From positions 1-49,982 of the forward strand of contig JAFCEK010000001.1 in the NCBI GenBank assembly GCA_017609225.1: a DNA stretch of 49,982 nt. Reading direction: 5' to 3'. Of this stretch, positions 1-37,983 are shown piece by piece. The DNA comes from Candidatus Aenigmatarchaeota archaeon. Its GTDB lineage: Archaea; Aenigmatarchaeota; Aenigmatarchaeia; QMZP01. Within the stretch, counting starts at the first letter, position 1, and each line of letters opens with the position of its first letter. The notes under the pieces are model-generated. The model saw nothing but the letters and a program-made list of their open reading frames with translations, was not told where the DNA came from and ran no database searches. The translations under genes and the position numbers were made by a program.

Positions 1-90
1 CTTAAGGCCAAAATTCCTGCATTCCTCAATAATTTTATCCCTGTCAGAATCATAGTCCTTTTGTTCCAGGTGGCAATGGACATCTATCAT
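1..90 (-). CDS. tatD: TatD-family metal-dependent hydrolase, N-terminal fragment running off the left edge
   Basis: The reverse complement of 1-90 reads MIDVHCHLEQKDYDSDRDKIIEECRNFGLK. M-I-D-x-H-C-H-L is the typical first metal-binding motif of TatD hydrolases. It is absent from the ORF track because it is truncated. Confidence 0.6.
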   Translation of the reverse strand, partial: MIDVHCHLEQKDYDSDRDKIIEECRNFGLK

Positions 91-97
91 ATATCTT

Positions 98-425
98 CGC
101 CTTGCAATCTGTTACGGAAACCGCTTATGCTTTATGCAGTTGGCTATCTGCAGTAGCGGTCATGTCTTACTTACGCCTTGCAGTGTGTGACGGGGACAGC
201 TATATGCTCAGTGCATACTGTCCTTGTTGTTAGCTGTCGTTTTATGCTTCGCCTTATAACCTATGACGGAAACTGCTTTGTTAGCAGTTAAATCTGTTCT
301 TGATGTTAGCAGTCATGCCTTGCTTACGCCTTGCAAACTGTAACGGGAACCACTTAATGCTTTATGTAATCTATCCTTGATGTTAGTGGTCAAACCCTTA
401 TCGCCTTGTAATCTGTGACGGAGCA
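98..425. repeat. Tandem array of about 4.3 units with a 75-77 bp period; each unit has a conserved box plus a covarying hairpin
   Basis: Units start at 98, 174, 250, 327 and 402, each with CGCCTT(G/A)(C/T)A..CT(G/A)T.ACGG. Each complete unit holds an inverted repeat ACNNCT...AGNNGT. Confidence 0.85.
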
Positions 426-434
426 TATTTAATA

Positions 435-5193: not shown

Positions 5194-8100
5194 TCATACC
5201 CTTCTTTTTTTGTAAACCAGTGCAGCAGCTATTATCACAATTATTACAGCAACCACTGCCAGCGCTATGCCTGTTATATTAACAGGGGCTTCACAAACAA
5301 GCCCTGATTCATTGCAGCCATATGTGCATGTTTCAACTGTTTCCCAGCCAGTGCCATCACCAGAGCACTGCTGAAGTTCATTTCCAAGGCATCTCTTTAA
5401 TCCAGGACTGCAAACTGTTTGTGTTGGGGCAATTCCCTCCTCTGTGTTGCACACAAGCGCTGTTTCATTGCATCCATACTGGCATGTTTCTATGGTTTCC
5501 CATGCACTTCCATCTGACATGCACCGCTGAAGGTCATCGCCAGAGCACTGTATAGCATCTGGTGTGCAAACAGTCCCTGCGGCTGCTGCTTCTTCACCTG
5601 TTATTGCAAATACAGAGAATCCAGGCGTTGTTGCCTGATAATATACATAATCTTCAACACCTGTAGCCCTGCCTGTTATGGCACCCAGAATTCCTTCAAC
5701 AAACTCAATAACACCCTTAACTATGCATCCAAGCCCAAGGATTCCGCAGTCACCTGCTGTAACAGCCCCTGTCAGTGAAAGGCTTCCGCTGACCTTTGCT
5801 GTCTGAAGGGTTTGCCATGTGTTGTCCTTGTATCTCATCATTTTCACGCTGTTTTCATCTATACTGTTATCAGTCAGCCATGATTTCAAAACCTTGAATT
5901 TTATCTTCGCTGTTGTTATGTTTTCCTCTTTTATATTCAATGCTGTTATAGTCAGATAGGCAAAAACATTTCCGGGTGCATCTGTTACATTTGCTGGTTT
6001 TGCTGCTTCTTTTTTAACTGTCACAACCACATTCTCAGCATTGGTTTTTGGTGTTATTGTTATTTCCTGAACATACAGATCATCCTCTTTTGTAAATGCT
6101 GCAACACCTGATGTGCCTGCAGGTATTGTGCCTATGTTTACTGTTTCGGAAACGCTGGATGCACCGGCTGCACCACCACCAGGCGTGCCCCCAGTGTCCC
6201 TTCCACCCGTAGATGTTCCAGGCTCTCCGGATGCCCAGATGGAGAATTCACAATATGGAATCTGCCATGTGCATGTTGTGGAAGTTGTGCCTGTAAGGTT
6301 TGCCTCATCTGTTCTTTCAATGCAATTTTCCCCTGAATTATCGCACTGGTATAAATGGTCGCATGCTGTATCCCCTCTCGGAATTGTCAGTTTGCATATC
6401 TGCGGATGGAGATTGTTTATTATCTTGTCTCTTGTTTCTGATATCATGCCAACATATCCGATTGTATTTCCTGAGGAATCTGTTTCACTGTCACTGAACA
6501 GCAAATCACCGGCTTCCTGTATATCCCTGGTATCGCTGCTCAGGCCGGTTTTTGTCAGGGTAACATTAAGGAAAATGATCTCACCACCCTCTGTATAGTT
6601 CAGCTTTATATTGGCTCTCCTGCCGGATGTATAATTGGTTTTCATTCCTGCATTCGGGCCGCATACCTGTCCCTGCACATGTTCCCATGTTCCATCCTGG
6701 TCAAGGTCATAACTCACGGTCCAGCCATCAGGCACCTGAATCAGGGTTACAAAATTACAGTAGGGGCATCTTGTAGCACTTGCTGTTCTTATTGGGGTGC
6801 ATGCGCTTATGCTGCATCTGGATTCAGAGTCACATATTTTTATTTTGTAATAATAGGTAGTGTTTGGCTGCAGGTCATAGTCAAGCGAGTTTACGCCACC
6901 ATCATTATAGATCTCTGCTGTGTGCCAAAGCTTGTGCTCTCTTACATCATCACTCAAAATACCAATATCATATATTGTCCTGTTGTATGGCGTTGAGCTG
7001 CATGTTGAGTCATTATACCAGAAGAACACTGTACCATTTGTGGGCTTGCTTGTTTCATACATTATCAGTGCAGAATCAGTATATTCTTCAAATTTAACAC
7101 CCACTATTACAGGCATGGATGTATCAACATAGTCAGGCGAATTTACCCCAACACCTTCGCAGTTTGGAGCAAATTCACAATCCCAGTCATTGCAGTCAAC
7201 CATATCATCATCGTCATCATCCACGCCGTTAAGACAGTCCTCATACTTTACAAAGCCATGCATAAGTATGTCTTCAAACATTGCCGTGTCTACATCCTGC
7301 TCAAAAAACCCGTCTATTGAAAAGTCAATTGCCCCGGGTGTAACCCAGCCAGGGCCAACCATATCGGAAGGTGAACTTGCATTTTTGTTTTCACTCGCTG
7401 AAGCTGCGGACACCCTCATATCTTTTTCGGAATCATAAAGCAACGGGAATTTTTCAAGGTCAGATTTCTTTACAGCCAGCATTGGTCCATGTATTACAGA
7501 GCACATCTTCTCTTTCCATGCGCTTAAAGTTATATCAGCAGCCTCCCATCCCCCGCTTGCACCGCACTTGTAGGCATTGAATACCTCGGTGGCTTTGTTA
7601 AGACTGGAATTCCATGCAGATATGTACTTGAACATAAACTCATAACCCCCTGCTGATGAATTATGCCCAAGGGAACAACCTCCTGTGGTGCTCCCGTCTG
7701 TATCAAGGTATATGTAAAGCTTCACAGTCTGATTGCCGCTTCCGAACATACCAGGACCTGTTTTTTCATCCTTGCATATTCCTGCCTGGCTGAAGTCCCT
7801 GACATCTACACCAAACCCGAAAGCATCACCTATATCCTTCATTCCCAGTCCGCATATATCCACAGCACCATCAAGCCCGGAATCAGGCCCTACCAAATCA
7901 CAGCCATCAGGATCAAATGCAACAGGAACAGGCGGCCCCTCTTCCATGCCATAAAACATATCATGCATTCCGGGAGAGGTACAGAAGCCGGTCATCCATC
8001 TGCATCCAGTGCCGCATTCAGCCTCTGTTGCAGCTGAGAAACATGTTGGCTCGCACCAGCCGCCATCAGGAGCCCCTGCCTGGGTTGTCCAGTTGCAGTA

Positions 8101-11100
8101 GGGGCTTTCATCACATGCTGTCTGGTTTGAGCTTAAAGTGATGTTGGTATGACACTGTTCAAATACGTTTGTGCAGTATCCAAATTCGCTGCTCCACATG
8201 CACTGTGTCTGCTCATCACACATTGTCTGGTTCCAGTCATACTTCCAGCATTCCATGCTCCAGTCAGGCTCACAGAACGGATATGGTTCAGGCATCCACT
8301 GGCATGCCATGCCGATCAGCGTTTCATTTGTGCATGCTGACTCATTCCCGTCATACTTCCAGCATTCCATACCTGCCTGTGCACCTGTGCCCATTCCACC
8401 AATAACATCCCCGCCTGCAAACCCTTTTGGATTGCACCAGCCGGGTTCCTTCCATCTGCAGCCTTCGGTGGCATCACATGCATTCTGGTCGTTTGATAAT
8501 GATTCATTCCAGCAGTCAACTCCTCCAGCACTCCAGTCCTCCATGCACCAGCCGTCAGTCCATCTGCATCCTGCAACGCTGTTACAGCCGTTTTCACCAA
8601 GGCTCTGGTTATAGCATATAGGCTCGCAAAAACCAGAAGGGTCCCAGTAGCAGATATCAGAATGCTGACTGCATGCTGCCTGGTTATCATAATCCCAGCA
8701 AACCATTAACTGGTTATCGCACCAGCTGCCCCATGAATCAGTTCTCCATGTGCAGCCAGCTGCAGTGTTACATGAGACATTGTCATTATACTGCCAGCAG
8801 TTTGATGACCAGTCCACATCACACACCGCGCCCCAGTCATTTGTTTCCCATCTGCAGCCCTCAGTGAGATTACACGCAGTCCTGTTACTGTCATACAGCC
8901 AGCAGTTTTTTGGGGCAAACGCTGCAGGCTCGCACCAGCCGCCTTGGGTCTGGCACCATTCTGTGGTGGCTCCCTCACCTTCACAATATGTGTCATTTGT
9001 CCATATACAATCCGATGGGCTGGCTTCGCATGCTGTCTGTGTTGTCATGGAATAGCATTCTTCCCCGATGCTCCAGTCCTGCTCACACCACCCGCTTCCT
9101 GTTCCATTGGACCATTCACAGGTTGCATTCCTCGCAAGGCATGCTGACTCATTCCCGTCATATTTCCAGCAGTCAGCACCAGGGAAATCACACCAGCTTC
9201 CCCAAGGGTCTGTCATCCATGTGCAGTTGTTGGCAATGCAGTTTGCCTCGCCAAGGTCTTCCAGCTCTGGATTATACCAGCCAAAACAGTCACCTGAAAC
9301 AAATCCGCAAAACGAATCAGCAAAGCATTCAGGATCAGTGCAATCAATAAGGTTATCATTATCATTATCAATAGAATCCCAGCATATTTCGGCTGTTTCT
9401 CCTGCCTTTGAGCAGTAGCCATCATTTTCCCCGCCTGACCATTCACAGGAACCTGTTGCATTGATTGCGCTCCTGCCTTTGTTTACACAGTCATACTGCG
9501 TATAACATCTGTCACAGGAATCTTCACATGTTTTTTCACTGCTGTCAACACAATACCCGCCCATTTCACTATTGTTTTCCTGAATCCATTTGCATTTAAC
9601 ATTATTGAATTCGTACGCATGCTCACAGTAGCACTTGGGGGTATTGCACATGTCAAAGGTTGTTGCAGAGCCTGGTGCAGCACTGGAATAGCTTGAAGCA
9701 TTTGGGTTTCCATAATAGGTGCAGCTTCCGCAGTCTGTTGTGCAGTCTGAAGCTATTCCAGTTTTAAACTGTTTTTTCGCCCTGCATGTGCCAAACCCGT
9801 TGGGAGCATCAGCATCAGCAGTAAATACGCATTTTGGGTTTTGCAGGCAATACTCCCTGGCGCTGGCTGTTGAATTATGCGCAGTCCCGTCAAATTTGTA
9901 TTCACATGCATAGCATGCCTTCATACAGTTTCTTTCATCGCTTCCCTTTGGCTCACATCTTCCGGATGGCACAGAAAGGTTTCCCTCGCAGTAATTCTCC
10001 AGAACCCATTTGCATCCGGCAGCCAGGCAGTTCCTTTCATTATCCAGAATGGTGCAGCTTTGGGTTTCATTTACACCAAAAATATCCTCCCTGTTGGGTA
10101 TGCATGTTTTTGTGGAGTTATCCCATATGCAGGGCATATACCATGGGTCTCCGGCTATCTGGTCGCATAAGGTCCTTGCAGACTCGGAATCAGTTGTTTT
10201 CATAATAACATCCTCGCATGAGGTTACGCCCTCCGGGACAGGTTCCATTTCGTCATAACATGCATGACTTATCCTGTTTTCAGTACAGCTTCCAGCCTTC
10301 CATTCACAGCATGTAGCAAGCATGGATATGGTGTTGCAAAGCCTTGATTCATTAATCATAGTGCAGTTTATTCCGTGATCCTGTATCTGGTTTGCATTGG
10401 CATGGCTTGTATTAATTATGCATTCATTGCTGCTGTATTCACAGCCAAGAACATTATTGCAGTTTGTTGAATTTTTATCAAAAAGGTAACATCCGGGGTT
10501 CCATTCCTCAAAAATACTTTCCCCATAACCAAAATCAGAAGGGTCTATGCAGCTTCCCCCCAGAGCAGGATTGGTCCAGTCAGTATACTGCCAGAAGCAG
10601 TAGTATGTTTCCATACACTCCCTTTCTGTTGTTATATTGGAACATGACATATTGAAATTCGGATAACACCAGCCATCGTTGGGTCCTGCGCCCCAGCTCT
10701 CCCAGGCACAATTCAACCCATAGGCATTATTCACACAATCATTCTGGGTGCCTCCTCTCCAGCCATCCCATGTCCAGCACTGTACCTCTTCACACCAGCC
10801 CCAGCCTTCTGAAAGCCGCCATGTACAGCCTGCAGCTTCACACTCGCCGGCAGTACTATAATCCCAGCAGCCCTCCTCCATGCAGTATGATGAGCCGTCC
10901 CATGTGCAATTTAATCCATAGGGATTGTTTTCACATGCACTCTGGTTTGTAAAGTCAAAATGCCAGCATGAGTACTCTTCGCATGAATCATGAACATAAT
11001 AATTATCTACCCATGTGCAGTTCATACCTTCAGGATTGTTTTCACACACACTCTGATTTGTTCCTGAATAATCCCAGCAGCCCTTTTCATAGCAGTAAGA

Positions 11101-11646
11101 AGACTGGGAATTCCATGAGCAGCTCTGGTTTTTTGAACCCAGCCCATTATTGCATTCAGCTTCTGTGGAATAGCTCCAGCAGCCTGCTTCATAACAGCTT
11201 CCCCATCTGCATCCTGTAGCATTCCTGCATTCAGCCTCTGTTTCCAGCTCCCAGCAATTTATGTTGGGATTGTAGCCTGTGCATTCGTTTTCCCAGCTGC
11301 ATCTCAGATTATAGATGTTATTTTCACACGCACTCTGGTTTGTTCCGTCAAATGTATCGCAATGAGGCTGTTCGCACCAGCCCCAGTCCGTTCCTGTCTG
11401 CCATGTGCAGTTTTTTCCGGGAATATCAGCTGAGAGGCATGCTGTTTCATTCCAGAAATTCCAGCATCCCAACTCTTCGCACCATCCGCCCCATTCGTCT
11501 GTATGCCAGTTGCAGTTAATATCAGCTTCGCATTCTGTTTCTGTTGTATAACTCCAGCAGTCTGCAGCAGCAAACGGAGAAACAAATATAATTGAAAACA
11601 TAGTAATTGCTGCAACTGCCCAAAAAAGAACAAATCCAGCCCTCAT
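5194..11646 (-). CDS. Giant (2150 aa) Cys/Trp-rich, sequon-rich surface protein with a C-terminal TM anchor
   Basis: Uninterrupted 6.45-kb ORF. Sec signal MRAGFVLFWAVAAITMFSIIFVSPFAAA. Many CW-x-C-x-C-x-W-x-WC repeats. Two D-rich DxDxDNLIDCxDxxC motifs. An FN3-like segment. A PGF-pre-PGF-like domain ends in TTPGFSVFAITGE. There are two Cys modules, then the TM IALAVVAVIIVIIAAALVY and KKRRV. Confidence 0.9.
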   Translation of the reverse strand: MRAGFVLFWAVAAITMFSIIFVSPFAAADCWSYTTETECEADINCNWHTDEWGGWCEELGCWNFWNETACLSADIPGKNCTWQTGTDWGWCEQPHCDTFDGTNQSACENNIYNLRCSWENECTGYNPNINCWELETEAECRNATGCRWGSCYEAGCWSYSTEAECNNGLGSKNQSCSWNSQSSYCYEKGCWDYSGTNQSVCENNPEGMNCTWVDNYYVHDSCEEYSCWHFDFTNQSACENNPYGLNCTWDGSSYCMEEGCWDYSTAGECEAAGCTWRLSEGWGWCEEVQCWTWDGWRGGTQNDCVNNAYGLNCAWESWGAGPNDGWCYPNFNMSCSNITTERECMETYYCFWQYTDWTNPALGGSCIDPSDFGYGESIFEEWNPGCYLFDKNSTNCNNVLGCEYSSNECIINTSHANANQIQDHGINCTMINESRLCNTISMLATCCEWKAGSCTENRISHACYDEMEPVPEGVTSCEDVIMKTTDSESARTLCDQIAGDPWYMPCIWDNSTKTCIPNREDIFGVNETQSCTILDNERNCLAAGCKWVLENYCEGNLSVPSGRCEPKGSDERNCMKACYACEYKFDGTAHNSTASAREYCLQNPKCVFTADADAPNGFGTCRAKKQFKTGIASDCTTDCGSCTYYGNPNASSYSSAAPGSATTFDMCNTPKCYCEHAYEFNNVKCKWIQENNSEMGGYCVDSSEKTCEDSCDRCYTQYDCVNKGRSAINATGSCEWSGGENDGYCSKAGETAEICWDSIDNDNDNLIDCTDPECFADSFCGFVSGDCFGWYNPELEDLGEANCIANNCTWMTDPWGSWCDFPGADCWKYDGNESACLARNATCEWSNGTGSGWCEQDWSIGEECYSMTTQTACEASPSDCIWTNDTYCEGEGATTEWCQTQGGWCEPAAFAPKNCWLYDSNRTACNLTEGCRWETNDWGAVCDVDWSSNCWQYNDNVSCNTAAGCTWRTDSWGSWCDNQLMVCWDYDNQAACSQHSDICYWDPSGFCEPICYNQSLGENGCNSVAGCRWTDGWCMEDWSAGGVDCWNESLSNDQNACDATEGCRWKEPGWCNPKGFAGGDVIGGMGTGAQAGMECWKYDGNESACTNETLIGMACQWMPEPYPFCEPDWSMECWKYDWNQTMCDEQTQCMWSSEFGYCTNVFEQCHTNITLSSNQTACDESPYCNWTTQAGAPDGGWCEPTCFSAATEAECGTGCRWMTGFCTSPGMHDMFYGMEEGPPVPVAFDPDGCDLVGPDSGLDGAVDICGLGMKDIGDAFGFGVDVRDFSQAGICKDEKTGPGMFGSGNQTVKLYIYLDTDGSTTGGCSLGHNSSAGGYEFMFKYISAWNSSLNKATEVFNAYKCGASGGWEAADITLSAWKEKMCSVIHGPMLAVKKSDLEKFPLLYDSEKDMRVSAASASENKNASSPSDMVGPGWVTPGAIDFSIDGFFEQDVDTAMFEDILMHGFVKYEDCLNGVDDDDDDMVDCNDWDCEFAPNCEGVGVNSPDYVDTSMPVIVGVKFEEYTDSALIMYETSKPTNGTVFFWYNDSTCSSTPYNRTIYDIGILSDDVREHKLWHTAEIYNDGGVNSLDYDLQPNTTYYYKIKICDSESRCSISACTPIRTASATRCPYCNFVTLIQVPDGWTVSYDLDQDGTWEHVQGQVCGPNAGMKTNYTSGRRANIKLNYTEGGEIIFLNVTLTKTGLSSDTRDIQEAGDLLFSDSETDSSGNTIGYVGMISETRDKIINNLHPQICKLTIPRGDTACDHLYQCDNSGENCIERTDEANLTGTTSTTCTWQIPYCEFSIWASGEPGTSTGGRDTGGTPGGGAAGASSVSETVNIGTIPAGTSGVAAFTKEDDLYVQEITITPKTNAENVVVTVKKEAAKPANVTDAPGNVFAYLTITALNIKEENITTAKIKFKVLKSWLTDNSIDENSVKMMRYKDNTWQTLQTAKVSGSLSLTGAVTAGDCGILGLGCIVKGVIEFVEGILGAITGRATGVEDYVYYQATTPGFSVFAITGEEAAAAGTVCTPDAIQCSGDDLQRCMSDGSAWETIETCQYGCNETALVCNTEEGIAPTQTVCSPGLKRCLGNELQQCSGDGTGWETVETCTYGCNESGLVCEAPVNITGIALAVVAVIIVIIAAALVYKKRRV

Positions 11647-12323: not shown

Positions 12324-12370
12324 TTCTTTGAATATATTATAACAAAAACAATTATTATTTAGTGGGATGT

Positions 12371-12847
12371 ATGAATGTGGGAGCTGTGTTTGGCATAATA
12401 TTTGCCGCAATATTCATAGGATTTATCCTGGCATTTGGTACAGGAGCAATAACAGACATATTCTGTGTTGGCAATGTTGCCCAGACAAACAATGCAGTAA
12501 AGCAGCTTGAGATAGCTGTTGAAAACCTTTATGTAAGGGGATCCGAGGGCTCAAGCGATGAATATACACTAAACATACCTGACAATGCAAGGGTATGCTT
12601 TGTGAACAGCACAGATGCAAGCCCGAATGTCCTGGGCGGCTGGATGCCAGACCCTGATACAGCGCATATAGTGAAAAGAAAGATAGAAACACAAAACCTC
12701 AATGTATGGGTTTACTACAACTGCGGAAGCCAGGAGCCGGGTTACAGGATTGAGTATCTCTCTGTGCCCAGCAGCTTTTGCGCCAGTCCAGGAACATCGC
12801 TCTATCTGGAGAACAAGGGACTTTCGGTTGAGATATCAAAAATGTAA
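12371..12847 (+). CDS. N-terminally anchored secreted protein (operon member)
   Basis: MNVGAVFGIIFAAIFIGFILAF hydrophobic N-terminus. Tightly spaced in the co-directional operon. Confidence 0.6.
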   Translation: MNVGAVFGIIFAAIFIGFILAFGTGAITDIFCVGNVAQTNNAVKQLEIAVENLYVRGSEGSSDEYTLNIPDNARVCFVNSTDASPNVLGGWMPDPDTAHIVKRKIETQNLNVWVYYNCGSQEPGYRIEYLSVPSSFCASPGTSLYLENKGLSVEISKM

Positions 12848-12887
12848 TTCATCAGCGCATGATTCAGAGTTCACATAACTGATATGC

Positions 12888-14015
12888 ATGATAACATTAT
12901 TCCAGCTGTTCAAGATGATTTTTGGCATAATTGTGGCAGCCTTTATTCTCTATGCGCTTCTGAATTATTCAGGCAGCTATTCAGTATTTCAGGAAAGCGG
13001 CATAAAGGCAAAGATATTGAACAATTTCAGGGAAACAGCGCAGGATGTTTATTATTCCGGAAATGCCATAACCTATACAGACTTTTCTGCATATGATTTT
13101 TCTGGCACAAGATATGAACCGCTCAGAAACCCCCCTCTAATAGTGTCCGAAGCAGGGGAAATGGATATATGGTTTCCTCTTTTCTTTGTTATGGGAGAGA
13201 ATGTTTACATACACAGGGGCAGCCTTGATTACAAATTCTGGAAATTTTATTTTGTTGAGGCACTACCTGATATGAATATAATCTTTAATCCTGTTGACAA
13301 CACGCCTGATGCATGGGAAATAATGCAGGGCATAGTGGAGCTTATGCCTGATACAGCAGGAACAGAAAGGAAAATATATTTCGGACTTTGTGACGGGGAT
13401 TTTTATGAAACAAATGCATGCGGAGGCAAGCCATGCAGCAGAAATGACTTCCTTAATGCGCAGTCCACATTCTCTGCAACCCGGTTTGATAAATGCACAG
13501 CATCCCTGCCGCAGAACTCAAGGCTTGTTGTGATATCATCAGGCTGCACGCAGGGCTATGCAAACAGCAGCATATGCATAATACCATCCGGTTCAGGTGT
13601 TGGAAATTTCTATATCTCGGGTTCTCCTGAAAAATTTATATACAGGGATTCCCTTGACCTGCTGTCTGCAGTCCTTGGCGGGACAGAGCAGGATGCATTT
13701 GGCAAAACGCAGGGGGAAAAATTTTATGAATACAAAAACAGGATATTTGGGGAAAGATTAAAGATAGCATCAGACATAACCGCCAAAAGGTCGCTGCTTG
13801 TTACAGGAAGGCTTAACCCGGATACGGAAAGCACTGACTATTACTGCAGGTCAGTTTATATTTCCCTTGAGGGCATAACAAACCAGATAAAATCACTTGT
13901 TTCCAACAGGAATTACTACACGAATACAGCAGACCAGACAAACCTTAAGAATCTCCTTGAGCAGGCAAAGCTCAATTACCAGGAGCTTGTAAACAGGGGA
14001 TGTGAGTATCAATGA
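12888..14015 (+). CDS. N-terminally anchored secreted protein, 375 aa
   Basis: MITLFQLFKMIFGIIVAAFILYALL N-terminal helix. Its stop overlaps the next start (ATGA at 14012). Confidence 0.65.
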   Translation: MITLFQLFKMIFGIIVAAFILYALLNYSGSYSVFQESGIKAKILNNFRETAQDVYYSGNAITYTDFSAYDFSGTRYEPLRNPPLIVSEAGEMDIWFPLFFVMGENVYIHRGSLDYKFWKFYFVEALPDMNIIFNPVDNTPDAWEIMQGIVELMPDTAGTERKIYFGLCDGDFYETNACGGKPCSRNDFLNAQSTFSATRFDKCTASLPQNSRLVVISSGCTQGYANSSICIIPSGSGVGNFYISGSPEKFIYRDSLDLLSAVLGGTEQDAFGKTQGEKFYEYKNRIFGERLKIASDITAKRSLLVTGRLNPDTESTDYYCRSVYISLEGITNQIKSLVSNRNYYTNTADQTNLKNLLEQAKLNYQELVNRGCEYQ

Positions 14016-14536
14016 AAACAAAAAACATAAAGGGGCAGTATTCTGTTCTTGAATATGTGTTTCTTTCCCTGTTCATTATAGCAATCATAATAGGGCTCAT
14101 GTTTTTCCTTACCATATGGAGCAGCATACAGTTTGGAGCTGAAAGCATGAAAACAGAATGGGACAGGGCTTTATGGCTCGGCCAGTATGTTCAGAACATT
14201 CCCCTGCTGGTTAAGGAAACAGGCATGTTTGATGATGGCAAGCTGACAGCCCTTGCAAGCATGGGCCCATCAAAGGCATGCGAATATCTTGAAAGCCTTG
14301 CAGGCCCTGACTTCTTTATGGAACTCAGGATTCTGGATGGAAATGAAACCCAGATAAACTGCACATGGCAGAACTATCCTGACTGCAATTACTGGGAGTT
14401 CTGCAAAAATACAGGCAAAAAAAAGAAAAAATTCTACACGCTTCCTGTAAATGTTTACAGAAGGATAGGGTTCAAGCTTCAGGAAACAACCACAGGCAGA
14501 ACAGACATTGGAATATTAAAGGCAGGTGTGTACTGA
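14012..14536 (+). CDS. Pilin-like protein with a class III signal peptide
   Basis: MKTKNIKG/QYSVLEYVFLSLFIIAIIIGLMFFL: K-G-Q site followed by a hydrophobic helix. Confidence 0.7.
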   Translation: MKTKNIKGQYSVLEYVFLSLFIIAIIIGLMFFLTIWSSIQFGAESMKTEWDRALWLGQYVQNIPLLVKETGMFDDGKLTALASMGPSKACEYLESLAGPDFFMELRILDGNETQINCTWQNYPDCNYWEFCKNTGKKKKKFYTLPVNVYRRIGFKLQETTTGRTDIGILKAGVY

Positions 14537-14559
14537 GGGTAGCAGCGGAAGGAGATTGC

Positions 14560-15093
14560 ATGAATGCAGAAAAAAACCATGAAAAGGCGCAGGCAAGCAT
14601 AATAATGATAGTCCTTGTTCTCATAATATTTGCAGGGCTTGCCCTGTTTCTCCTCTCCTTTGCAAAAACAATGAGCCAGGAGGATTACATGAGCACCTAT
14701 GTTAACAGTCTGCTGCTTTCAATAATGAGAACAGACACAGGATACCTGGATTCAGACTGCAGGCTTGTGTCAGATGCAATATCATGCAGCTTTTTCTCAA
14801 CAGGGCTTGTGTGCAGGGATTCGGAAATAACATGCGACAGCCTGGCATACAGAAAGGTGGAGGAATACATAAACAGAACCATAAAAAAAGGCTTCAGGTA
14901 TTTCTTTTCTGTAACACCGGAAGGATTTGTTGCAAGGTCAAGCTCGGGGGAGCCAATAAAATTTGAAATCGGGGATTCAAAGCTGAAAAGCGAGAAAACA
15001 GAAAAATGGAGCGCAAACCAGAGAATAATGAAGGCAACAGCAACAGGCCAGTATTCCCTGAAGGTTCAGCTTGTTATAGCTGTGAAAAAATAA
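14560..15093 (+). CDS. Pilin-like protein with a class III signal peptide
   Basis: MNAEKNHEKA/QASIIMIVLVLIIFAGLALFLL. Confidence 0.65.
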   Translation: MNAEKNHEKAQASIIMIVLVLIIFAGLALFLLSFAKTMSQEDYMSTYVNSLLLSIMRTDTGYLDSDCRLVSDAISCSFFSTGLVCRDSEITCDSLAYRKVEEYINRTIKKGFRYFFSVTPEGFVARSSSGEPIKFEIGDSKLKSEKTEKWSANQRIMKATATGQYSLKVQLVIAVKK

Positions 15094-15169
15094 CAGCATG
15101 CCCAGCTCTGCGAGCCCATGATTTCAAATAATTTCCAAATTTATATACATATAATGTTAATTAATTATT

Positions 15170-17020
15170 ATGAATATTAGGAAGGGGCAGGCAGAGCTCA
15201 TAATCCTGGTTGGCATAATAGTTGTTTTTGTGGCTGTTGTTTTCTATACATACCAGTCAAGCCTGTTCACGGCACCTGTAACACCTGAAACAGAAAACAT
15301 AAGGAACACTATAGAGAACTTCATAAGGGAGGGAGCAAGAGACACGCTCAGAACAATGTATGATTACGGCGGATACCTGGAGGCGCAGCCCGGCTCCGTG
15401 ATTTTTCTGGGAAAGGAAATTCCATACTGGCAGAAAAGCGGACAGGTATCATACCCTGATGTGAGGCAAAATCTTGTACAGGGCGTAACAAGCTATCTGA
15501 ATGAAAACAAGGATTCTCTTGAGGCAATGCTTGCAGGAAAGAATGTAACCCTTGGAACCGCCTATGTAAGCGCGGTTATCCTGGGAAGCCAGATAACCCT
15601 TACAGTAAACATGCCAACCCAGTACATGGAACAGAGCCTGCAGCAGCCGTATGTTGTTACAGTTCCATCCAAACTCGGCGAGATATATGAGTTTTCAAAG
15701 GGATTTGCAGCGCAGGAGGCCACAAGCAGATATTTTGAATATTTCACTGTGTCCAGCATGATGATAAGCCCGTTTGAAGGCGGTGTGCAGGCAGTGCCTG
15801 TTGTGGTTTTGCTTACGCAATGCGGGGAAATGGTTTTCAAAACATGGTTTGATATAAAACCCGGAATGGAGGATGTAATAAAAACAACGCTTGCTCATAC
15901 CTATATGCCAGGCAAGTCACCGCTTGGCGTAATGCACAAAACAAGCTTCCCGAAATATATGATACCTGAAATAGGAAACAAGGCATATGAGGATTTGAAT
16001 ATAAGCTTCCATCTGCCTGATGATTTTGAATTAACGCAGAGCAATTTCCAGTTTACCCCAAATCCGATAAGTGCATTTACAGAGCCTGTGCCAATGACAA
16101 GCCAGTGCTATTCAAACCCTGTTTATGTCAAGTATGCAGTAAACTACCCTGTTATTGTAAGGGTAAAGGACAGCCTTACAGGAGACAGCTTCCATTTCGC
16201 GATTGATGTTTCCATTTATGACAATGCGCCAAGGCCATGGACATCTGATACAACAGGATACACACCAGAGGTGCAGCAGGAGATATGCGAGAACCAGCTC
16301 TGCACAGCAAGCATAACAGTCACAGACAGCAGCGGTGCACCTGTTTCTGGAGCAGAAGCAAGCTTTATGGGATGCCCAATCGGAAGAACAGACAGTAATG
16401 GTATAGTGACAGCTTCCATACCATGCGGTATAGGGCCTCTTGTAATATACAAAAACAGATACCAGACATTCGAGCAGATGATGTCCTCAGACCATCTTGA
16501 AGGCACCACGATATCTATTGAAAAGATACCTGTGGTAAATCTGAATTTTTATGAAGTTAATATAGTCAACAACACGCTGACAGACGAGTACTGGATAAGG
16601 GTTGGAGATGTGAATATGATAGATGATATAACAGATGAAACAATTCATATAATATTTTATGACCTTTCAACAGGCGAAACCTATGAGAGAATATACGAGA
16701 ACAGGCAGGCAACAATAAGGCATATACCCCCGGGTTCATATGCTGTTACAGCCATGCTTTCAAGCCCTGATATGGCAATCATGTATGGCGCTGTGCTAAC
16801 CACACTTACAATAACAGAAGATATGGACGGAGGCACACTTTATGTTTATCTTCCTTATAATTTTGAATTCAAGGACATAACAGACAGCGTTGAAAAAACA
16901 GTTGCATCCAGAACATTAACAGCAGTGCTGGAGGAATGCGGCATAGGACCAATATCAAGCGAACAGTACGATATAAATAATTTACCATGTAAAAAAGCAT
17001 ATAGCGAGATTGTAATCTAA
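15170..17020 (+). CDS. Large (616 aa) pilin-like protein with a carboxypeptidase-regulatory-like beta-sandwich
   Basis: MNIRKG/QAELIILVGIIVVFVAVVF. Internal ITVTDSSGAPVSGAEASFMGCPIGRTDSNGIVTASIPCG resembles the CarboxypepD_reg fold. Confidence 0.7.
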   Translation: MNIRKGQAELIILVGIIVVFVAVVFYTYQSSLFTAPVTPETENIRNTIENFIREGARDTLRTMYDYGGYLEAQPGSVIFLGKEIPYWQKSGQVSYPDVRQNLVQGVTSYLNENKDSLEAMLAGKNVTLGTAYVSAVILGSQITLTVNMPTQYMEQSLQQPYVVTVPSKLGEIYEFSKGFAAQEATSRYFEYFTVSSMMISPFEGGVQAVPVVVLLTQCGEMVFKTWFDIKPGMEDVIKTTLAHTYMPGKSPLGVMHKTSFPKYMIPEIGNKAYEDLNISFHLPDDFELTQSNFQFTPNPISAFTEPVPMTSQCYSNPVYVKYAVNYPVIVRVKDSLTGDSFHFAIDVSIYDNAPRPWTSDTTGYTPEVQQEICENQLCTASITVTDSSGAPVSGAEASFMGCPIGRTDSNGIVTASIPCGIGPLVIYKNRYQTFEQMMSSDHLEGTTISIEKIPVVNLNFYEVNIVNNTLTDEYWIRVGDVNMIDDITDETIHIIFYDLSTGETYERIYENRQATIRHIPPGSYAVTAMLSSPDMAIMYGAVLTTLTITEDMDGGTLYVYLPYNFEFKDITDSVEKTVASRTLTAVLEECGIGPISSEQYDINNLPCKKAYSEIVI

Positions 17021-17031
17021 AAGATGAGAAT

Positions 17032-20000
17032 ATGGATATAAAGCACCTTGCACTGGAAATCTTTGCAGTAGCGGTATCCTATTTATTGTTAATGTTACCT
17101 GTAACATCAGCCACAAGCGTTAATATATTTTTCAATGGCATACAGCAGGACACAACAGATATATCTCCCGGAAATCTTGTAAGCAAAGAGATAAACGTGT
17201 ATCATGATGCTGATGATATAACATGGACAAACATAAAGGTTCTTGTAACCCTGAGCAGCGCAAGCCTTTCCCACAGCATAAAGAAAATATATTTATACAA
17301 ATGCAAAACACTGTCGCCATCCGCATGCATCCAGGGAACGCCCCAGGTATTTGACAGCTGGATTGATACAGAGCTTTCATGGAATGATATATCCCAGAGT
17401 GAGGGCGTGGGGGTTTATCCCCAAACAGCAAACCTGATGTTCCTTGTTAAGCTTGAAGACTTCAATGGCAAGGCAAGCTGGGTTGGCTTCTGGGATACCA
17501 TAAGAAGAATAGACTACAACATATTCAATCATTATAGTTATCCCCTCAATGAAATTGAATTTCATGCAAAATCCCTGGATATGATAGAACCCATAAAGAC
17601 ATACATAGAAAATTACCAGATGATTCCCTTCAACTGGGCAGAGAAGGTTGTATTCAGGATGGCAAACATACTCTATGGTGTTGGTGCAAACGAGCAGGAA
17701 ATTGAACAGACACCACCGTTTTTTGATGGGGCCCAGACAAGTACAAACCAGGTAACAAGCATAGGAAAGGACTATTACTTTGTGCTTTCAAACATCACAA
17801 GCGGCATAACCAATCCTGTAACCATGCGTTTGAATCCATCATTCACATGCGGCAATGGCCAATGCGAAACAGACTTGGGAGAAACCACATCAACATGCTG
17901 CTATGACTGCGGCTGCGCAGCAGATTTCTATTGCGATATGAGTGATGAACAGAATCCGGAAACAGGCGCCTGCAGGTCGCTAACAGAAATCACAGTAGAT
18001 GTAACAAGCACATCAATGGCTGACATAACTGACTGCAGCCAGAACCAGCAGTTAACTATAACAGCGCAGATAAATAATGCACCTTCCAACCTTCCCGCAA
18101 CGCTTACAGGATATATAAAACTGAATGAAACCCAGTATAATGTTCCATGCCAGTCAAGCATCCCAGGAATATATGAATGCACTGTAAATCTGCAGCCAGA
18201 GGTAAGATGCGGTGACGGAAGCTATGTTCTTGGTCCAAATGAGATTAATTTCACCATACCATTTAATGACGGACCTGATATGATAACTGAAACAATAGGA
18301 ACAGAATTTTCTGACATAACAGTAAACTACAACTGCGAATGTGCAGGCGGATATTATTGTGATTCCGGTCTGAGAATGTGCAAGCCGGAGGGGCAGATAG
18401 CGCTTGTTATAATAAATGTTACCTCATATATGGATAATTACAATCCTGCAGGGGATAACATAGGAATATATGCAACAATAAACAATCCCCCATCTGACAT
18501 GAGTATTACAGGAAGTTCATATGTTCTGGGAAACATAACCTTTGACGGAAGTTCTTCGCCTGGTTCCTCAGGAAGCGTGACATGTGATGAAAGCAACAAC
18601 ATATATTACTGCAGCATACCGCTGTTTATACAAAACTATGACCACTCAAGGCAGTATATAGTGAACGGAAACAGCCTCTCATTTACAATAAGCTTTAGTG
18701 ATGGCGGCAACTCCATAACAAAAACGCTTACAACAGGGTTTTCCGATATTATAGTGCCTTCGTACAGATGCGGTGATACTACATGCAATGCCGAAGAGAA
18801 TTCAGATAACTGCTGCCTGGACTGCGGATGTCCCAATCCCGATGATTACTGTGACAGGGTTTACGGCTGCGTGAACGAAAACAACATAACCATGGTTATC
18901 GATACAATAACACCTGAAAACCTGACTGACTGCAAGATACCCCATGTGCTTAACATAAAAGCAAGAATACTCAACGCGCCAAGCGACCTTGTTCTCAATT
19001 ATTATTATTATCTGCAGAATGATGAAATAAAGGGCTGGAACCTGTTATGCATGGAATCACCGCCAGGATCAAATATGGGAATTTTTGAATGCCAGCTTGC
19101 TGTTCCCCCCATTGATGATTGTTCCCTGCCTTATTACACGCTTGGCAATAATAAGCTGAGGTTTTCAGTTTCATTTCCAAACGGCCTCACGCAGGTTCTG
19201 ACAAAAACGCTTGAGGCTGAGTTTCAGGATATAAACATAGTTCCAACATACCATTGCGGTGACAATATATGCGAATATGACCTAAACGAGAGCGGCTCTG
19301 TGTGCTGTATTGACTGCATATGCGGCTCAGACCCGGATTTTGGATCTGAATATTACTGCGACTATGACCCCCAGCTGAATCCAAACGGCACATGCCTCCC
19401 AAAAAACAACATAACACTTGTTATAGACAAGCCGATGGCAGTTGTGCATTTCACAAGCTGCGAGAAGGCAAACACAGTAAACATAAAGGCGCATGTTGAA
19501 AACCAGCCTTCAGGCATGATTGTTGAAAATATTTTCGGCATTTTCAACGGGGAAACAGCTGAATATATCTCATGCACACCTGAAATGGGAATAATTACAA
19601 CACCAAACTATACAGGACCTGTTGAATGGAACTCATACAACTGCAGTCTTATTGTACCTGCAGAGCAGCAATGTTCACAGGGCCAGACATACACCTATAG
19701 CAATAACTCACTCTCATTCTTCATAAGCTATACAAACGGTTTGGGAAAAAGGGAAACACAGATACTTACACAGCCATATCCTGATGTGACAATAACCCAG
19801 AATATAAGAACACTTTATGACATAATGCAGGATGCAATCAGCAGGATGAAAGGAAAGCTTCAGGAAACCATAACACTTATGGAGGACCTCATCAAAATGT
19901 GGGAGGACTGTTTGGACATGCTGATTGCATTAACCATAGTAATGGTTATAGGAACAATTGTGGCAGGCGTTATTGGAGCCAAGACCGGAGGGACAGAAGG

Positions 20001-21426
20001 ATTCTCTGAAACAGTAAAGGCATCAAGTGCAGCCAGCACTGCAGTCATAACAACACTCATGGGCATATGCGAAATAATGGGTAAGGTAATACAGCTCAGA
20101 ATAAATATGAAGGAAACAGAGATTGACTTTATAAGAATGGAAACATGCATCGAGGTTTACCAGCACCAGATGGACACGGGAATGTGTGACAGGAATGCTG
20201 AGGGCTGCTTTAATGCAATAGCAGGCTGCATAGAGTTCGGGGAAATTAATAGTTTCATAAACAGCGCACAGAGCATAGGCAGGGATATAAACTCCCAGGT
20301 ACAGCGGATTGGAAACGCATGGAGAAATGTGGGAGAAACAGTTGAAGGCCTTTCATTCGGAGCCCAGGGAGAAGGTGCAATAAGCTTCACATGCTCTCCT
20401 GGAGGCAGCTACTGTTGCGGCTATGTACCAAGAACAACAACAGGCGCAGGGCAGAACCAGTACCAGCTTCAGACAGTCAGCCTGACTATGGCCAGTCTGA
20501 AAAACTGTGAGAGGCCAAGCATAAAGATATACTCAAAGAAGGACTGGCTGGCAAGCTCCGATGTATGCAAATCAGCAAGCGGCAGGGCAGATGATGAGGC
20601 AGAAACAGCAGCAAACCAGATATGCATTGAAGCTGGTACAGGGTGCAATGTTGACAGGAAGACCATAAGCAGGCATGACAGGGTTTTTGAATGCAAGTAT
20701 CTGCTAAAGGAAGGCGACAACGGATACGATGAAAATGTAAAGATGCAGTGCGAGGCAAAATCAGCATATGCGAATCAGGCAGGAAAAGAAAAAGCCAATA
20801 AAATATGTGAAAGCGAGGGCGGTTCAGGCTGCAAGGCAAAGGCAACCTTCTGGGGTGAGAATGAATTTAAATGTGTATCCTCAGAAACAGGATTCAAGGA
20901 AATAACATCTTCTTACAGGGGAACCACAAAGGAGCTGTTCGGACCGCAGATGTTTGGCCAGTCAGACCAGGATTCGGGAAATGATGAATATGCCTTTGTT
21001 CTGGCATGTGATGGCGTGGACACAGACACATCCCAAACAGTGAAGTACTGCCTGGGAACACCGCAGGCAGGATGCGGAACAGGCTCTCCATGCGCTGCTG
21101 TCCGCCCGGAATGGGAAGACATGGCTCCAAAATCACCTGCAGGCACAATAACACCAACAGCAACACCTGTTGATACCCCAACAACATTCAGCGTCCAAAC
21201 AGACGCATCAGTTGTTTCTTTTGTATGGCTTATAAACGGCAGAGAATTGCGTAGAGGCAGAACATATGATGATGATAATTATGGCTACAGGGTATTGGAT
21301 ATAACCAGCGATGGAAGATTGATAATTGAATTCACAAAACCAAACAGATACCCGCTTGAATCGCGCATAACAGATGACAGCGGAAACATTGGCTACATAA
21401 CAGAATGGATAGATGTTTCACCCTGA
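17032..21426 (+). CDS. Giant (1464 aa) modular Cys-rich surface protein with an internal hydrophobic segment
   Basis: Sec signal (LLLMLPVTSA). Four tandem modules of roughly 150 aa, three of which start CG-x-x-x-CE...CC-x-DC-x-C while the second starts with the variant CECAGGYYC. TM-like LIALTIVMVIGTIVAGVIGA at 19921-19980. Cys-rich C-terminal region and a PKD-like end. Confidence 0.85.
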   Translation: MDIKHLALEIFAVAVSYLLLMLPVTSATSVNIFFNGIQQDTTDISPGNLVSKEINVYHDADDITWTNIKVLVTLSSASLSHSIKKIYLYKCKTLSPSACIQGTPQVFDSWIDTELSWNDISQSEGVGVYPQTANLMFLVKLEDFNGKASWVGFWDTIRRIDYNIFNHYSYPLNEIEFHAKSLDMIEPIKTYIENYQMIPFNWAEKVVFRMANILYGVGANEQEIEQTPPFFDGAQTSTNQVTSIGKDYYFVLSNITSGITNPVTMRLNPSFTCGNGQCETDLGETTSTCCYDCGCAADFYCDMSDEQNPETGACRSLTEITVDVTSTSMADITDCSQNQQLTITAQINNAPSNLPATLTGYIKLNETQYNVPCQSSIPGIYECTVNLQPEVRCGDGSYVLGPNEINFTIPFNDGPDMITETIGTEFSDITVNYNCECAGGYYCDSGLRMCKPEGQIALVIINVTSYMDNYNPAGDNIGIYATINNPPSDMSITGSSYVLGNITFDGSSSPGSSGSVTCDESNNIYYCSIPLFIQNYDHSRQYIVNGNSLSFTISFSDGGNSITKTLTTGFSDIIVPSYRCGDTTCNAEENSDNCCLDCGCPNPDDYCDRVYGCVNENNITMVIDTITPENLTDCKIPHVLNIKARILNAPSDLVLNYYYYLQNDEIKGWNLLCMESPPGSNMGIFECQLAVPPIDDCSLPYYTLGNNKLRFSVSFPNGLTQVLTKTLEAEFQDINIVPTYHCGDNICEYDLNESGSVCCIDCICGSDPDFGSEYYCDYDPQLNPNGTCLPKNNITLVIDKPMAVVHFTSCEKANTVNIKAHVENQPSGMIVENIFGIFNGETAEYISCTPEMGIITTPNYTGPVEWNSYNCSLIVPAEQQCSQGQTYTYSNNSLSFFISYTNGLGKRETQILTQPYPDVTITQNIRTLYDIMQDAISRMKGKLQETITLMEDLIKMWEDCLDMLIALTIVMVIGTIVAGVIGAKTGGTEGFSETVKASSAASTAVITTLMGICEIMGKVIQLRINMKETEIDFIRMETCIEVYQHQMDTGMCDRNAEGCFNAIAGCIEFGEINSFINSAQSIGRDINSQVQRIGNAWRNVGETVEGLSFGAQGEGAISFTCSPGGSYCCGYVPRTTTGAGQNQYQLQTVSLTMASLKNCERPSIKIYSKKDWLASSDVCKSASGRADDEAETAANQICIEAGTGCNVDRKTISRHDRVFECKYLLKEGDNGYDENVKMQCEAKSAYANQAGKEKANKICESEGGSGCKAKATFWGENEFKCVSSETGFKEITSSYRGTTKELFGPQMFGQSDQDSGNDEYAFVLACDGVDTDTSQTVKYCLGTPQAGCGTGSPCAAVRPEWEDMAPKSPAGTITPTATPVDTPTTFSVQTDASVVSFVWLINGRELRRGRTYDDDNYGYRVLDITSDGRLIIEFTKPNRYPLESRITDDSGNIGYITEWIDVSP

Positions 21427-21455
21427 TTTTTATTTCCTTCTGCCTAATTATTTAT

Positions 21456-23006: not shown

Positions 23007-23019
23007 GTCTTAATTTTAT

Positions 23020-23130
23020 GCTGAACCAGAAAACCATTGTTTTCAAACAGCGGATGTATGGTTCTGGTTCAACAGCTGTTGCCTCGCCAAGAAAACCGCC
23101 GACTTTAGTCAGCGGATATACGGAGGCAAC
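23020..23130 (+). repeat. MITE-like two-hairpin repeat, copy 2 (intergenic, between convergent genes)
   Basis: Same ~110-bp sequence as the other three copies. Flanked by TTTAT and ATTAT. Confidence 0.85.
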
Positions 23131-23146
23131 ATTATATTAGTCTGAC

Positions 23147-27365: not shown

Positions 27366-27380
27366 CCCCTGTTAAATTAT

Positions 27381-27490
27381 GTTGAACCAGAAAACCATTG
27401 TTTTCAAACAGTGGATGTATGGCTTTGGTTCAACAGCTGTTGCCTCGCCAAGAAAACCGCCGACTTTAGTCGCGGATATACGGAGGCAAC
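27381..27490 (+). repeat. MITE-like two-hairpin repeat, copy 3 (just upstream of the pyrG start, antisense to it)
   Basis: Flanked on both sides by ATTAT (27376-27380 and 27491-27495). Confidence 0.85.
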
Positions 27491-27574
27491 ATTATGAACT
27501 ATGATATATTGTATGAAAGAAGAATAAAAACCTTTGGTAACATCAGTTTTTATTCTAATTCTGTAAATTAGAGG

Positions 27575-32707: not shown

Positions 32708-32881
32708 TTACTGCTAACGCAGCAGAGGTTTAATAGTTAAAAAGCGGAGGTAGCAGGAAAGGCCTTCTCCGCCAATACAGCGAGAAGGTTATATAGCTAA
32801 ATAAGTGGAGGTATCAAGAAAAGCATTCTCCACTTGTATAGCAAACAAGTTGGAGAACTAAATAAGTGGAGGTATCATTAT
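32708..32881 (+). promoter_or_regulatory. psmA leader: three tandem hairpin-plus-AAG(C/T)GGAGGTA modules
   Basis: Hairpins at about 32711-32725, 32763-32788 and 32826-32857. Each is followed by (T)AA(A/T)A..AAGYGGAGGTA. The last GGAGGT (32868-32873) lies 8 nt before the ATG. Confidence 0.6.
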
Positions 32882-33620: not shown

Positions 33621-33721
33621 CTAAGCTCCACTAATATAGCAAAACAAGTGGAGGTTGGGAAAGGCCTTCTCCACTAATATAGCAATGCAATAATATAGCA
33701 AAACAAGTGGAGGTTGTATAT
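33621..33721 (+). promoter_or_regulatory. SBDS leader: two CTCCACT...AGTGGAGGT hairpins, the second sequestering the SD
   Basis: CTCCACT 33626-33632 pairs with AGTGGAG 33647-33653. CTCCACT 33669-33675 pairs with AGTGGAG 33706-33712. GGAGGT is at 33709-33714 and the ATG at 33722. Confidence 0.55.
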
Positions 33722-37045: not shown

Positions 37046-37183
37046 ATGTACAGGTGTCTTAACTGCGGAAAGCAGGTAGAGCTGGACTTAAAGACAGCCA
37101 AAAAAGTAATCTGCCCCTACTGCGGCTACAGGATTCTGAAAAAGGAAAGGCCAAAGGTAATAAAAAAGGTAAGGGCAATATAA
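37046..37183 (+). CDS. rpoP: DNA-directed RNA polymerase subunit P (Rpo12), 45 aa
   Basis: Not in the ORF track. Manual translation gives MYRCLNCGKQVELDLKTAKKVICPYCGYRILKKERPKVIKKVRAI*. It has a CxxC...CxxC zinc ribbon and the typical KERP...VKAx tail. It sits in the conserved position after rpl37ae. Confidence 0.85.
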   Translation: MYRCLNCGKQVELDLKTAKKVICPYCGYRILKKERPKVIKKVRAI

Positions 37184-37184
37184 T

Positions 37185-37294
37185 GTTGCCTCCGTATATC
37201 CGCCTACTAAAGTCGGCGGTTTTCTTGGCGAGGCAACAGCTGTTGAACCAGAACCATACATCCACTGTTTGAAAACAATGGTTTTCTGGTTCAG
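37185..37294 (-). repeat. MITE-like two-hairpin repeat, copy 4 (inverted; between the rpoP stop and pfdB)
   Basis: The reverse complement matches copies 1-3. It begins 2 nt after the rpoP TAA and runs up to the truncated N-terminus of pfdB. Confidence 0.85.
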
Positions 37295-37877: not shown

Positions 37878-37983
37878 GCTGTTGTTGAGCTGGCAATATG
37901 GCAGCATTTAAGGAACTGGTTTTAACCATAAATCTTATAAAGCTTACTTTCATATACTGATATACTGCATTTAAGGATGAAAA

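Follow-up and report, generated by a model that had tools for sequence, protein, structure and literature searches.

The 344-bp spacer between nth and tatD (positions 91 to 434 of the window, by which we mean the whole 49,982-bp stretch of DNA that was analysed) consists almost entirely of a tandem array of 76-bp units, each combining a conserved 20-nt box with a short hairpin whose arms vary between units and yet stay complementary. The array is of a known general kind, the prokaryotic intergenic hairpin repeats and minisatellites, and belongs to no known family. Our tentative reading, to which we give a probability of about 40%, is that it is an old, lineage-specific intercistronic hairpin minisatellite of the MIRU/REP type, which would be cotranscribed with nth and tatD and whose stem would be under selection as RNA.

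A repeat search of the window revealed five in-register copies of the box (consensus CGCCTT..A...T.T.ACGG), starting at positions 98, 174, 250, 327 and 402 with start-to-start spacings of 76, 76, 77 and 75 bp and all lying on one strand. Searching with the 20-nt box CGCCTTGCAANCTGTNACGG at up to three mismatches returned the same five positions and no other in 49,982 bp, compared to an expectation of 0.03 matches, and none of 100 shuffled sequences reached five. Both searches agree with an earlier note on this DNA, which had placed four full units and one partial unit at these starts between nth and tatD. The conserved box that the note saw at the head of each unit does recur five times, but as a consensus and not as an exact sequence (three mismatches in unit 3, two in unit 2), and its idea that the box might recur elsewhere, for example near replication or partition genes, was not borne out, as no copy lies outside the array in the window and no such genes are nearby. 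Half-box searches of the window gave, outside the array, one 1-mismatch match to the first half-box only, which is within chance expectation. The whole units are 61–66% identical in pairwise comparisons, and Tandem Repeats Finder, when run on the window, missed the array because of this low identity. Mean identity was 78% in the stem arms, 76% in the box segment (columns 1–22; pairwise 64–86%), 55% in the tail and 52% in the loop. The segments between the boxes are nevertheless homologous to each other, with identities of up to 0.67 in the loop and up to 0.85 in the tail. The description of the loop as poorly conserved is therefore correct for its mean identity, but overlooks the shared motifs CTTGATGTTAG (units 2–4) and ATGCTTTATG (units 1 and 4). 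Within the box lies an imperfect dyad, CTGTNACGG. On the minus strand, the spacer has the layout box5-(linker-hairpin-box)x4, so that a box stands at both ends of the array.

Unit 1 (98–173) has its box core at 98–117 and its stem at 120–125/155–160 (ACCGCT/AGCGGT), with an inner TGC/GCA extension; its loop holds a 14-nt internal duplication (129–140 and 143–154). In unit 2 (174–249; box core 174–193) the stem at 196–201/232–237 (ACAGCT/AGCTGT) can be extended to 8 bp as 195–202/231–238, and in plus-sense RNA it would face a competing alternative pairing, GGACAG/CTGTCC. Unit 3 (250–326) has three substitutions in its box core (250–269) and a 5′ arm at 272–277 (ACTGCT); its 3′ arm (AGCAGT) is present twice, proximally at 283–288 and distally at 308–313, TGTTAGCAGT occurring in two copies, and the predicted hairpin uses the proximal arm to form 7 bp around a 5-nt loop. 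Unit 4 (327–401) has its box core at 327–346 and its stem at 349–354/385–390 (ACCACT/AGTGGT). The partial unit 5 (402–440) comprises a box core (402–421) and a weakly homologous stretch up to about column 39, which runs across the nth stop codon (435–437); nhmmer aligned 402–440 to positions 1–39 of the unit model (E = 2.4e-5).

The flanking genes, both on the minus strand, are as the earlier note named them. The upstream gene of the interrupted pair, nth (endonuclease III; 435–1103), encodes HhH-GPD domains, and the first 30 codons of tatD (1–90), at which the contig ends, show 53% identity to the N-terminus of a relative's TatD (E = 9e-11). In six related lineages (loci L121–L127 and L248–L251) the block from PCNA to nth is syntenic, and the next gene begins 0–18 bp past nth or overlaps it. 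Where identified, this next gene is tatD, with a gap of 4–18 bp, as in the junctions TGA-tatt-ATG (L122) and TAG-ttgattat-ATG (L125). The junction in the window is wider by about 335 bp, and the tight junction in six lineages shows that the 344-bp spacer is a lineage-specific insertion. No similar repeats were found in the relatives' loci with nhmmer profiles of the unit and the box. The nearest nth homologues are only 60–71% identical (one homologue cluster, at 64% identity, includes a protein named 'Candidatus Aenigmatarchaeota archaeon'), and the proteins of the contig are singletons among about 15 billion sequences. Absence of the array from close relatives, together with the lack of a transcript, had been named as a finding that would speak against a selected helix; half of this applies, in that the array is absent from all available relatives, although all of these are distant. 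The contig is about 92% coding by a crude ORF model, and the spacer is its longest non-coding stretch; retention of 344 bp in so compact a genome argues against junk. The contig encodes PCNA, a class II aminoacyl-tRNA synthetase, SerRS, CTP synthase, both proteasome subunits, SBDS, the Rrp4/41/42 exosome operon, L37ae, RpoP, prefoldin, SepF, FttA, an ERCC4 nuclease and Nre. The window appears to span an entire contig, part of an ordinary archaeal chromosome. When its ORFs were scanned against Pfam and NCBIfam, genes for Cas proteins, transposases, RAYTs, Orc1/Cdc6 and partition proteins were all lacking.

When the units are aligned with MAFFT, every one of the four full units shows columns 23–28 paired with columns 59–64. 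The result showed that 24 of 24 stem cells are Watson–Crick and that two columns have changed on both arms, in three cells: one column pair reads C:G, A:U, U:A and C:G across the units, and its neighbour is G:C three times and A:U once. The inverted repeat that had been reported to vary between units while remaining complementary is thus present exactly as described. When the 3′ partner was slid by 1–3 columns, pairing fell to 8–63%. A within-alignment permutation test gave 10/500, about 1/48, which is the floor for four sequences; the covariation statistics stand at this floor because there are only four units. In simulations on a star phylogeny, in which four units derived from a paired ancestor by unconstrained change, four perfect 6-bp stems were kept in 0 of 200,000 runs at the divergence of the loop and tail, whereas at the divergence of the box they were kept in 0.14% of runs, none of which had three or more double changes. 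Even if a few thousand other helix positions are taken into account, the stem result remains unlikely by chance. Simple satellite decay is rejected, and some process maintains the complementarity of the arms. The covariation is real, but a single locus in a single assembly, with four units, is all that underlies it; to the extent that four units permit, the data support a helix under constraint.

The earlier note had also proposed that the helix itself is selected, whether as RNA, as a cruciform or as protein-bound DNA. That the pairing goes beyond chance and simple decay is upheld by the simulations, but duplex DNA is unlikely to form a cruciform here, 6-bp arms separated by a 24–30-nt spacer being poorly suited to it, and single units folded as RNA did not outperform their shuffled counterparts (z between −2.3 and +0.4). 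The region as a whole reached only z = −1.4 to −1.7, and as single-stranded DNA the single units gave weak folds that did not surpass those of shuffles (−3.7 to −8.9 kcal/mol). The two RNA senses were compared by a partition function over positions 60–470. The stem probability in the minus sense was 0.84 for unit 1, 0.87 for unit 2, 0.99 for unit 3 (proximal arm) and 0.96 for unit 4, compared to 0.77, 0.00, 0.99 (proximal arm) and 0.93, respectively, in the plus sense. The minus sense also adds a seventh pair, which is G.U in three units and G-C in unit 2. The RNAalifold consensus energy slightly favoured the plus sense (−10.9 versus −8.2 kcal/mol), owing to a G.U-rich hairpin within the box (columns 3–9 with 13–20); this box hairpin was rejected as a structure of its own, as its covariation scored 178/500 against shuffles and its predicted probability was about zero. 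These predictions weakly favour the operon (minus) strand, the preference coming from one unit and one wobble pair. Given that the flanking genes are co-directional and that neither strand of the array has five or more T in a row, minus-strand cotranscription within the operon is most likely. An AT-rich stretch, TATTAAATAT (425–434, minus strand), follows directly after the nth stop and, as read from the sequence, might serve a minus-sense transcript as a TATA-like element of the archaeal type. We infer that the hairpin probably acts as RNA rather than as single-stranded DNA.

No coding signal was found in the array, in keeping with the view that neither strand holds a conserved ORF. The unit period, 3n+1, is no multiple of three. 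A frame of 10–12 codons does recur in register on the minus strand in all four units, with the peptides MTATADSQLHKA, (L)TTNIKDRLHKA..., MTANIKNRFNC and (T)TANNKDSMH, but only two of the four combine a start with a stop. The BLOSUM score of this frame (1.08) lies between those of the other frames (0.90 and 1.14), and the variable columns fall on codon positions 1, 2 and 3 at 12, 9 and 11, without bias. The MTANIKDRLHKA-like mini-ORF was therefore rejected, being neither above the other frames nor marked by codon-position bias. A six-frame pseudo-protein of the array had no match among 5.8 billion proteins.

Searches for a second locus or an orthologous array in the window, the relatives' loci, JGI metagenomes, IMG/VR, plasmids and phages found none. 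The nhmmer profiles of the unit and the box, run against the window and the comparison loci, recovered the array only. Rfam gave no match at the gathering score for the whole window; at E values up to 10, positions 1–600 gave four far-sub-threshold chance matches, mostly outside the array. ARAGORN found no tRNA or tmRNA in the window. A two-box pattern proved too loose for GTDB genomes, giving 118 chance matches, mostly in bacterial MAGs and genomes unrelated to this archaeon, and a single one of these 118 loci matched a stricter form of the box. The scan of JGI metagenomes, which required two strict boxes 50–62 nt apart, led to two loci that proved unrelated, one with a short 37-nt repeat (L120) and the other a REP cluster beside a RAYT-like gene (L119). 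In IMG/VR, the two-box pattern had no match and the single-box pattern chance matches only, and blastn in distant mode against plasmids and phages found no match.

Several known systems resemble the array in part. MIRUs are intergenic elements of 40–100 bp, one of which, located between two ORFs, is transcribed in a polycistronic mRNA, and which are absent at the homologous Mycobacterium leprae site; clusters of REP/BIME elements influence mRNA stability; and copies of bcr1 preserve their RNA structure through compensatory changes (PMC3184786). Like MIRUs, the array consists of tandem units in this size range (here 76 bp) with internal inverted repeats, in one orientation between co-directional operon genes, and its site, occupied here, is empty in relatives. 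The likeness is by analogy alone, since MIRUs are mycobacterial and the host of the array is archaeal; homology is for this reason not expected, and no sequence similarity is claimed. MIRUs further differ in occupying about 40–50 loci, compared to one for the array, and in having small ORFs that overlap the stop and start of the flanking genes, whereas the array has a 3n+1 period and lacks a coding signal. REP/BIME elements are likewise hairpin repeats between cistrons, in some cases in clusters, and they can stabilise the upstream mRNA and preserve their structure from copy to copy; however, REPs are 20–40 nt long, G+C-rich, present in hundreds of copies, alternating within BIMEs and linked to RAYTs, whereas the 76-bp units are all direct and confined to a single locus, with no other copy and no RAYT in the 50-kb contig. 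The array shares with bcr1 the nature of a non-coding repeat in which compensatory changes preserve the predicted RNA structure, but bcr1 is about 155 bp long, dispersed and not tandem, with 5-bp flanking direct repeats. CRISPR arrays also alternate a short conserved repeat with a longer variable segment and have a repeat at both ends, but the variable segments of the array are homologous, its repeats are diverged and there are no cas genes. Sponge RNAs of the CsrB/RsmZ type, in which about 350 nt are built up from imperfect repeats of a module that bears a short conserved motif, are similar in build but carry another motif, and we know of no CsrA-type partner in archaea. In the F-plasmid centromere sopC, too, direct repeats stand in tandem and every one of them includes an inverted repeat; there, however, the inverted repeat is the conserved protein site, whereas in the array its arms covary, and the neighbourhood lacks partition genes.

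Other assignments were rejected. By inspection, a C/D-box sRNA does not fit (UGAUGU in only two units, no CUGA at the right spacing), nor does an H/ACA sRNA (ANA 6–7 nt past the stem, a strongly asymmetric 'pocket'), and the Rfam search at E up to 10 over positions 1–600 found no snoRNA match within the units. An archaeal ORB origin was dismissed in view of the all-direct repeats, the lack of an AT-rich block in the array and of an Orc1/Cdc6 domain on the contig, and no skew switch occurs at the site. Readings as attC sites or as a DGR were considered and rejected. The VIPR repeat RNAs, which consist of short alternating GGY/NN motifs (bioRxiv 10.64898/2026.04.26.720920), are unrelated to the 76-nt units.

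If the array is an intercistronic hairpin minisatellite, it may have arisen by old tandem amplification of the 76-bp unit, the 20-nt box plus short hairpin, in a formerly tight nth-tatD junction. Read-through of the operon on the minus strand would place four hairpins in the intercistronic RNA, each followed by the box UYCCGUNACAGNUUGCAAGGCG, and selection for base pairing in this RNA would maintain the stem. By analogy with REP/BIME elements and MIRUs, the hairpins may punctuate the transcript; they might shield the upstream nth message from 3′-to-5′ decay by the exosome that the contig encodes, and might uncouple tatD from nth. The insertion itself must have put an end to the tight coupling between nth and tatD. 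In the minus-strand reading, the last box (box 1) ends 7 nt before the tatD ATG, and its 3′ end, AAGGCG, is the only Shine–Dalgarno-like motif available to tatD. The conserved box has no role in the intercistronic-hairpin model, which was counted against that model.

The same filled site can be read as the work of a selfish element, which we regard as unlikely. The units would then be a cluster of hairpin elements of the REP/REPIN, MITE or PATE type, each separately inserted or amplified; a transposase encoded elsewhere would recognise the single-stranded DNA hairpin, the covariation would come from a constraint that mobility imposes on the whole family, and the box would serve as a target or cleavage motif, so that new copies land beside old ones. 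Occupancy of the site here and its emptiness in relatives agree with this, as do the box at both ends of the array (an R-S-R-S-R layout) and a weak ATAT direct repeat flanking the insert. The contig also has another small, highly structured insertion element in four near-identical copies, one of which replaces the 3′ end of a gene, indicating that the lineage hosts small mobile elements, and the metagenome locus L119 is a true RAYT-plus-REP cluster with a superficially similar box. However, there is no further box or unit in 50 kb, no transposase or RAYT emerged from the Pfam and NCBIfam scans of the contig, the units share a single orientation, unlike those of BIMEs, their hairpins are weak as single-stranded DNA, and units that are 61–66% identical must be old and not recently mobile. 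A stand-alone ncRNA gene of about 330 nt on either strand, in which the five boxes are repeated protein-binding sites accompanied by structural hairpins, is in our view rather improbable; it might act as a sponge in the manner of CsrB/RsmZ, or be processed into small RNAs of about 76 nt. In its favour, the box is the best-conserved segment after the stem arms and is found in the array only; the reading also accords with the covarying stem, with the TATA-like TATTAAATAT directly upstream in the minus sense and with plus-sense box substitutions that are all compatible with a small G.U-containing hairpin. That box hairpin, however, lacks statistical support and has a predicted probability of essentially zero; Rfam gives no match even at E up to 10, C/D and H/ACA box geometry and tRNAs are lacking, a terminator is not evident, and absence from all relatives would be unusual for a housekeeping ncRNA. 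A more specific version, to which we give somewhat less credence still, is that the array is a previously unknown modular ncRNA of an Aenigmarchaeota-like DPANN archaeon, with five 20-nt protein-recognition boxes, each with a constrained hairpin, formed de novo by tandem duplication in the operon junction and serving as a sponge, a scaffold or a small-RNA precursor; if true, it would show a CRISPR-like architecture of repeats and variable segments without cas genes.

A neutral, decaying minisatellite, quite unlikely in our judgement, would owe its complementarity to quasi-palindrome template switching, to arm-to-arm conversion or to luck. Slippage-type events in the loops (the internal duplication in unit 1 and the duplicated 3′ arm in unit 3), the gain of flanking complementarity in unit 2, to 8 bp, and the limitation of the array to one lineage are what such a history would leave. 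The simulations, however, exclude chance, and template switching would have been needed at least three times while leaving no uncorrected mismatch; over a 6-bp stem with a 24–30-nt spacer, quasi-palindrome mutagenesis should be rarer than point mutation. Further points against neutrality are that the arms are more conserved than the loop or tail and that a streamlined genome retains the spacer. Duplex-DNA iterons, that is, five phased sites for a DNA-binding protein at a centromere-like, origin or regulatory locus, with an incidental inverted repeat, are very unlikely: the regular spacing of five direct 20-bp boxes, the imperfect dyad CTGTNACGG in the box and the similar build of sopC-type centromeres, tandem repeats each with an inverted repeat, would suit them, but recognition of the duplex leaves the arm covariation unexplained, the contig carries no orc1/cdc6, parA/segA or similar gene, there is neither an AT-rich unwinding element nor an inverted ORB-like arrangement, and the array sits in a former operon junction. 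An assembly artefact is scarcely credible even though the array begins 97 nt from the contig end and the window is as long as the longest contig recorded for its proteins (49,982 bp), since units that differ by about 35% cannot come from collapsed or duplicated reads and the genes on both sides are those that synteny predicts, in the right orientation. Read as an orphan CRISPR array that has degenerated, the array would have a 24-nt repeat that ends in GAAAC, and its spacers would measure about 52 nt; the R-S-R-S-R-S-R-S-R layout and the superficial likeness of the box and its RAAC tail to CRISPR repeats suggest this reading at first sight, but it is effectively refuted by 'spacers' that are homologous to each other and each contain their own covarying inverted repeat, by 'repeats' that are merely 64–86% identical and by the lack of a cas gene within 50 kb.

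If the stem is truly selected, the intercistronic hairpin minisatellite would be a small and clean case of a structured element born by tandem duplication in a compact DPANN genome, with divergence under a pairing constraint after duplication. It would also extend intercistronic hairpin repeats of the REP/MIRU/bcr1 type to archaea, in which, to our knowledge, such elements have hardly been described. The array offers a testable handle on the uncoupling of an archaeal operon, nth-tatD, once translational coupling has been lost. As it is known from one locus on one metagenome-derived contig, with no relatives that carry it, its reach is limited and it has no bearing on a long-standing question; so far it is a one-off in a single uncultured archaeon.

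Two possible origins within the contig were rejected. Derivation of the box from the 3′ end of nth was suggested by a similarity that is not significant, unit 5 being marginal (9/500), and kinship of the array with a 118-nt element or with 57-nt upstream modules gave local alignment scores no better than those of shuffled sequences. The peptides encoded by the 118-nt element match two more contigs (P0124 and P0125), possibly from the same organism or a close relative.

Paired modules of 57–61 nt, arranged in tandem, were found immediately 5′ of three genes, namely psmA (32756–32873), SBDS (33629–33716) and sepF (37983–38100). Every module consists of a sequence-variable hairpin followed by a conserved 3′ box, CTAAATAAGTGGAGGT, which contains the TATA-like ATATAGC and GGAGGT. 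Comparison of the regions upstream of psmA and sepF (129 bp each) showed that they are 90% identical. Complementarity between the GGAGG box and the 5′ arm of the module (CCTTCTCC or TCTCCACTT) suggests that the modules constitute a common promoter/5′-UTR cassette whose structure would sequester the Shine–Dalgarno sequence. As for psmA itself, the listed TTG start (32834) is probably wrong, and the ATG at 32884 is probably the real start.

A distinct repeat of about 118 nt is present in the window in four copies, three on the plus strand (1452–1565, 23014–23138 and 27375–27495) and one on the minus strand (37177–37294); three copies share 96–100% identity and one is at 84%. The strand complementary to the plus-strand copies is predicted to fold into a pair of strong hairpins, with an energy of −50.4 kcal/mol (z = −5.95), and a search of Rfam returned no match for the element. 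In the conserved 144-aa gene at 1146–1586, one copy has replaced the last ~40 codons, and homology to relatives ends at residue 105. Another copy lies in the exosome/rpoP superoperon, and ORFs on two further contigs (P0124 and P0125) include peptides that the element encodes. The ~118-nt repeat has the appearance of either a MITE-like element that is still active or a family of sRNAs.

A 2,150-aa ORF on the minus strand (5194–11646), which carries internal degenerate repeats of families D4–D6, D8, D12 and D13, is followed by a series of large ORFs of 375–1,464 aa (12362–24922). Searches of Pfam and NCBIfam gave no match for any of these ORFs with the sole exception of that at 23147–24922, which has a single weak NCBIfam domain match. 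The large ORFs of both intervals probably encode surface proteins specific to the lineage, proteins of this kind being typical of DPANN archaea.

At 49,982 bp, the window is as long as the longest contig recorded for its proteins and so appears to represent the entire contig; it ends within tatD, just 97 nt past the array of 76-bp hairpin units (window 1–97). The search pattern built from the conserved box that opens each array unit retrieved a bacterial contig, L119 (JGI Ga0163144_10724810, positions 1–1028). This locus is unrelated to the archaeal array and was rejected as a relative of it, but it makes a useful comparator. One of its genes is RAYT-like, matching NCBIfam REP_Tyr_transpos at a level under the curated cut-off (E = 1.3e-13), and after this gene come tandem REP-like hairpin units of ~70 bp in which CGCCTTGGAACTTGTAACGG is present; L119 is a true REP/RAYT cluster.
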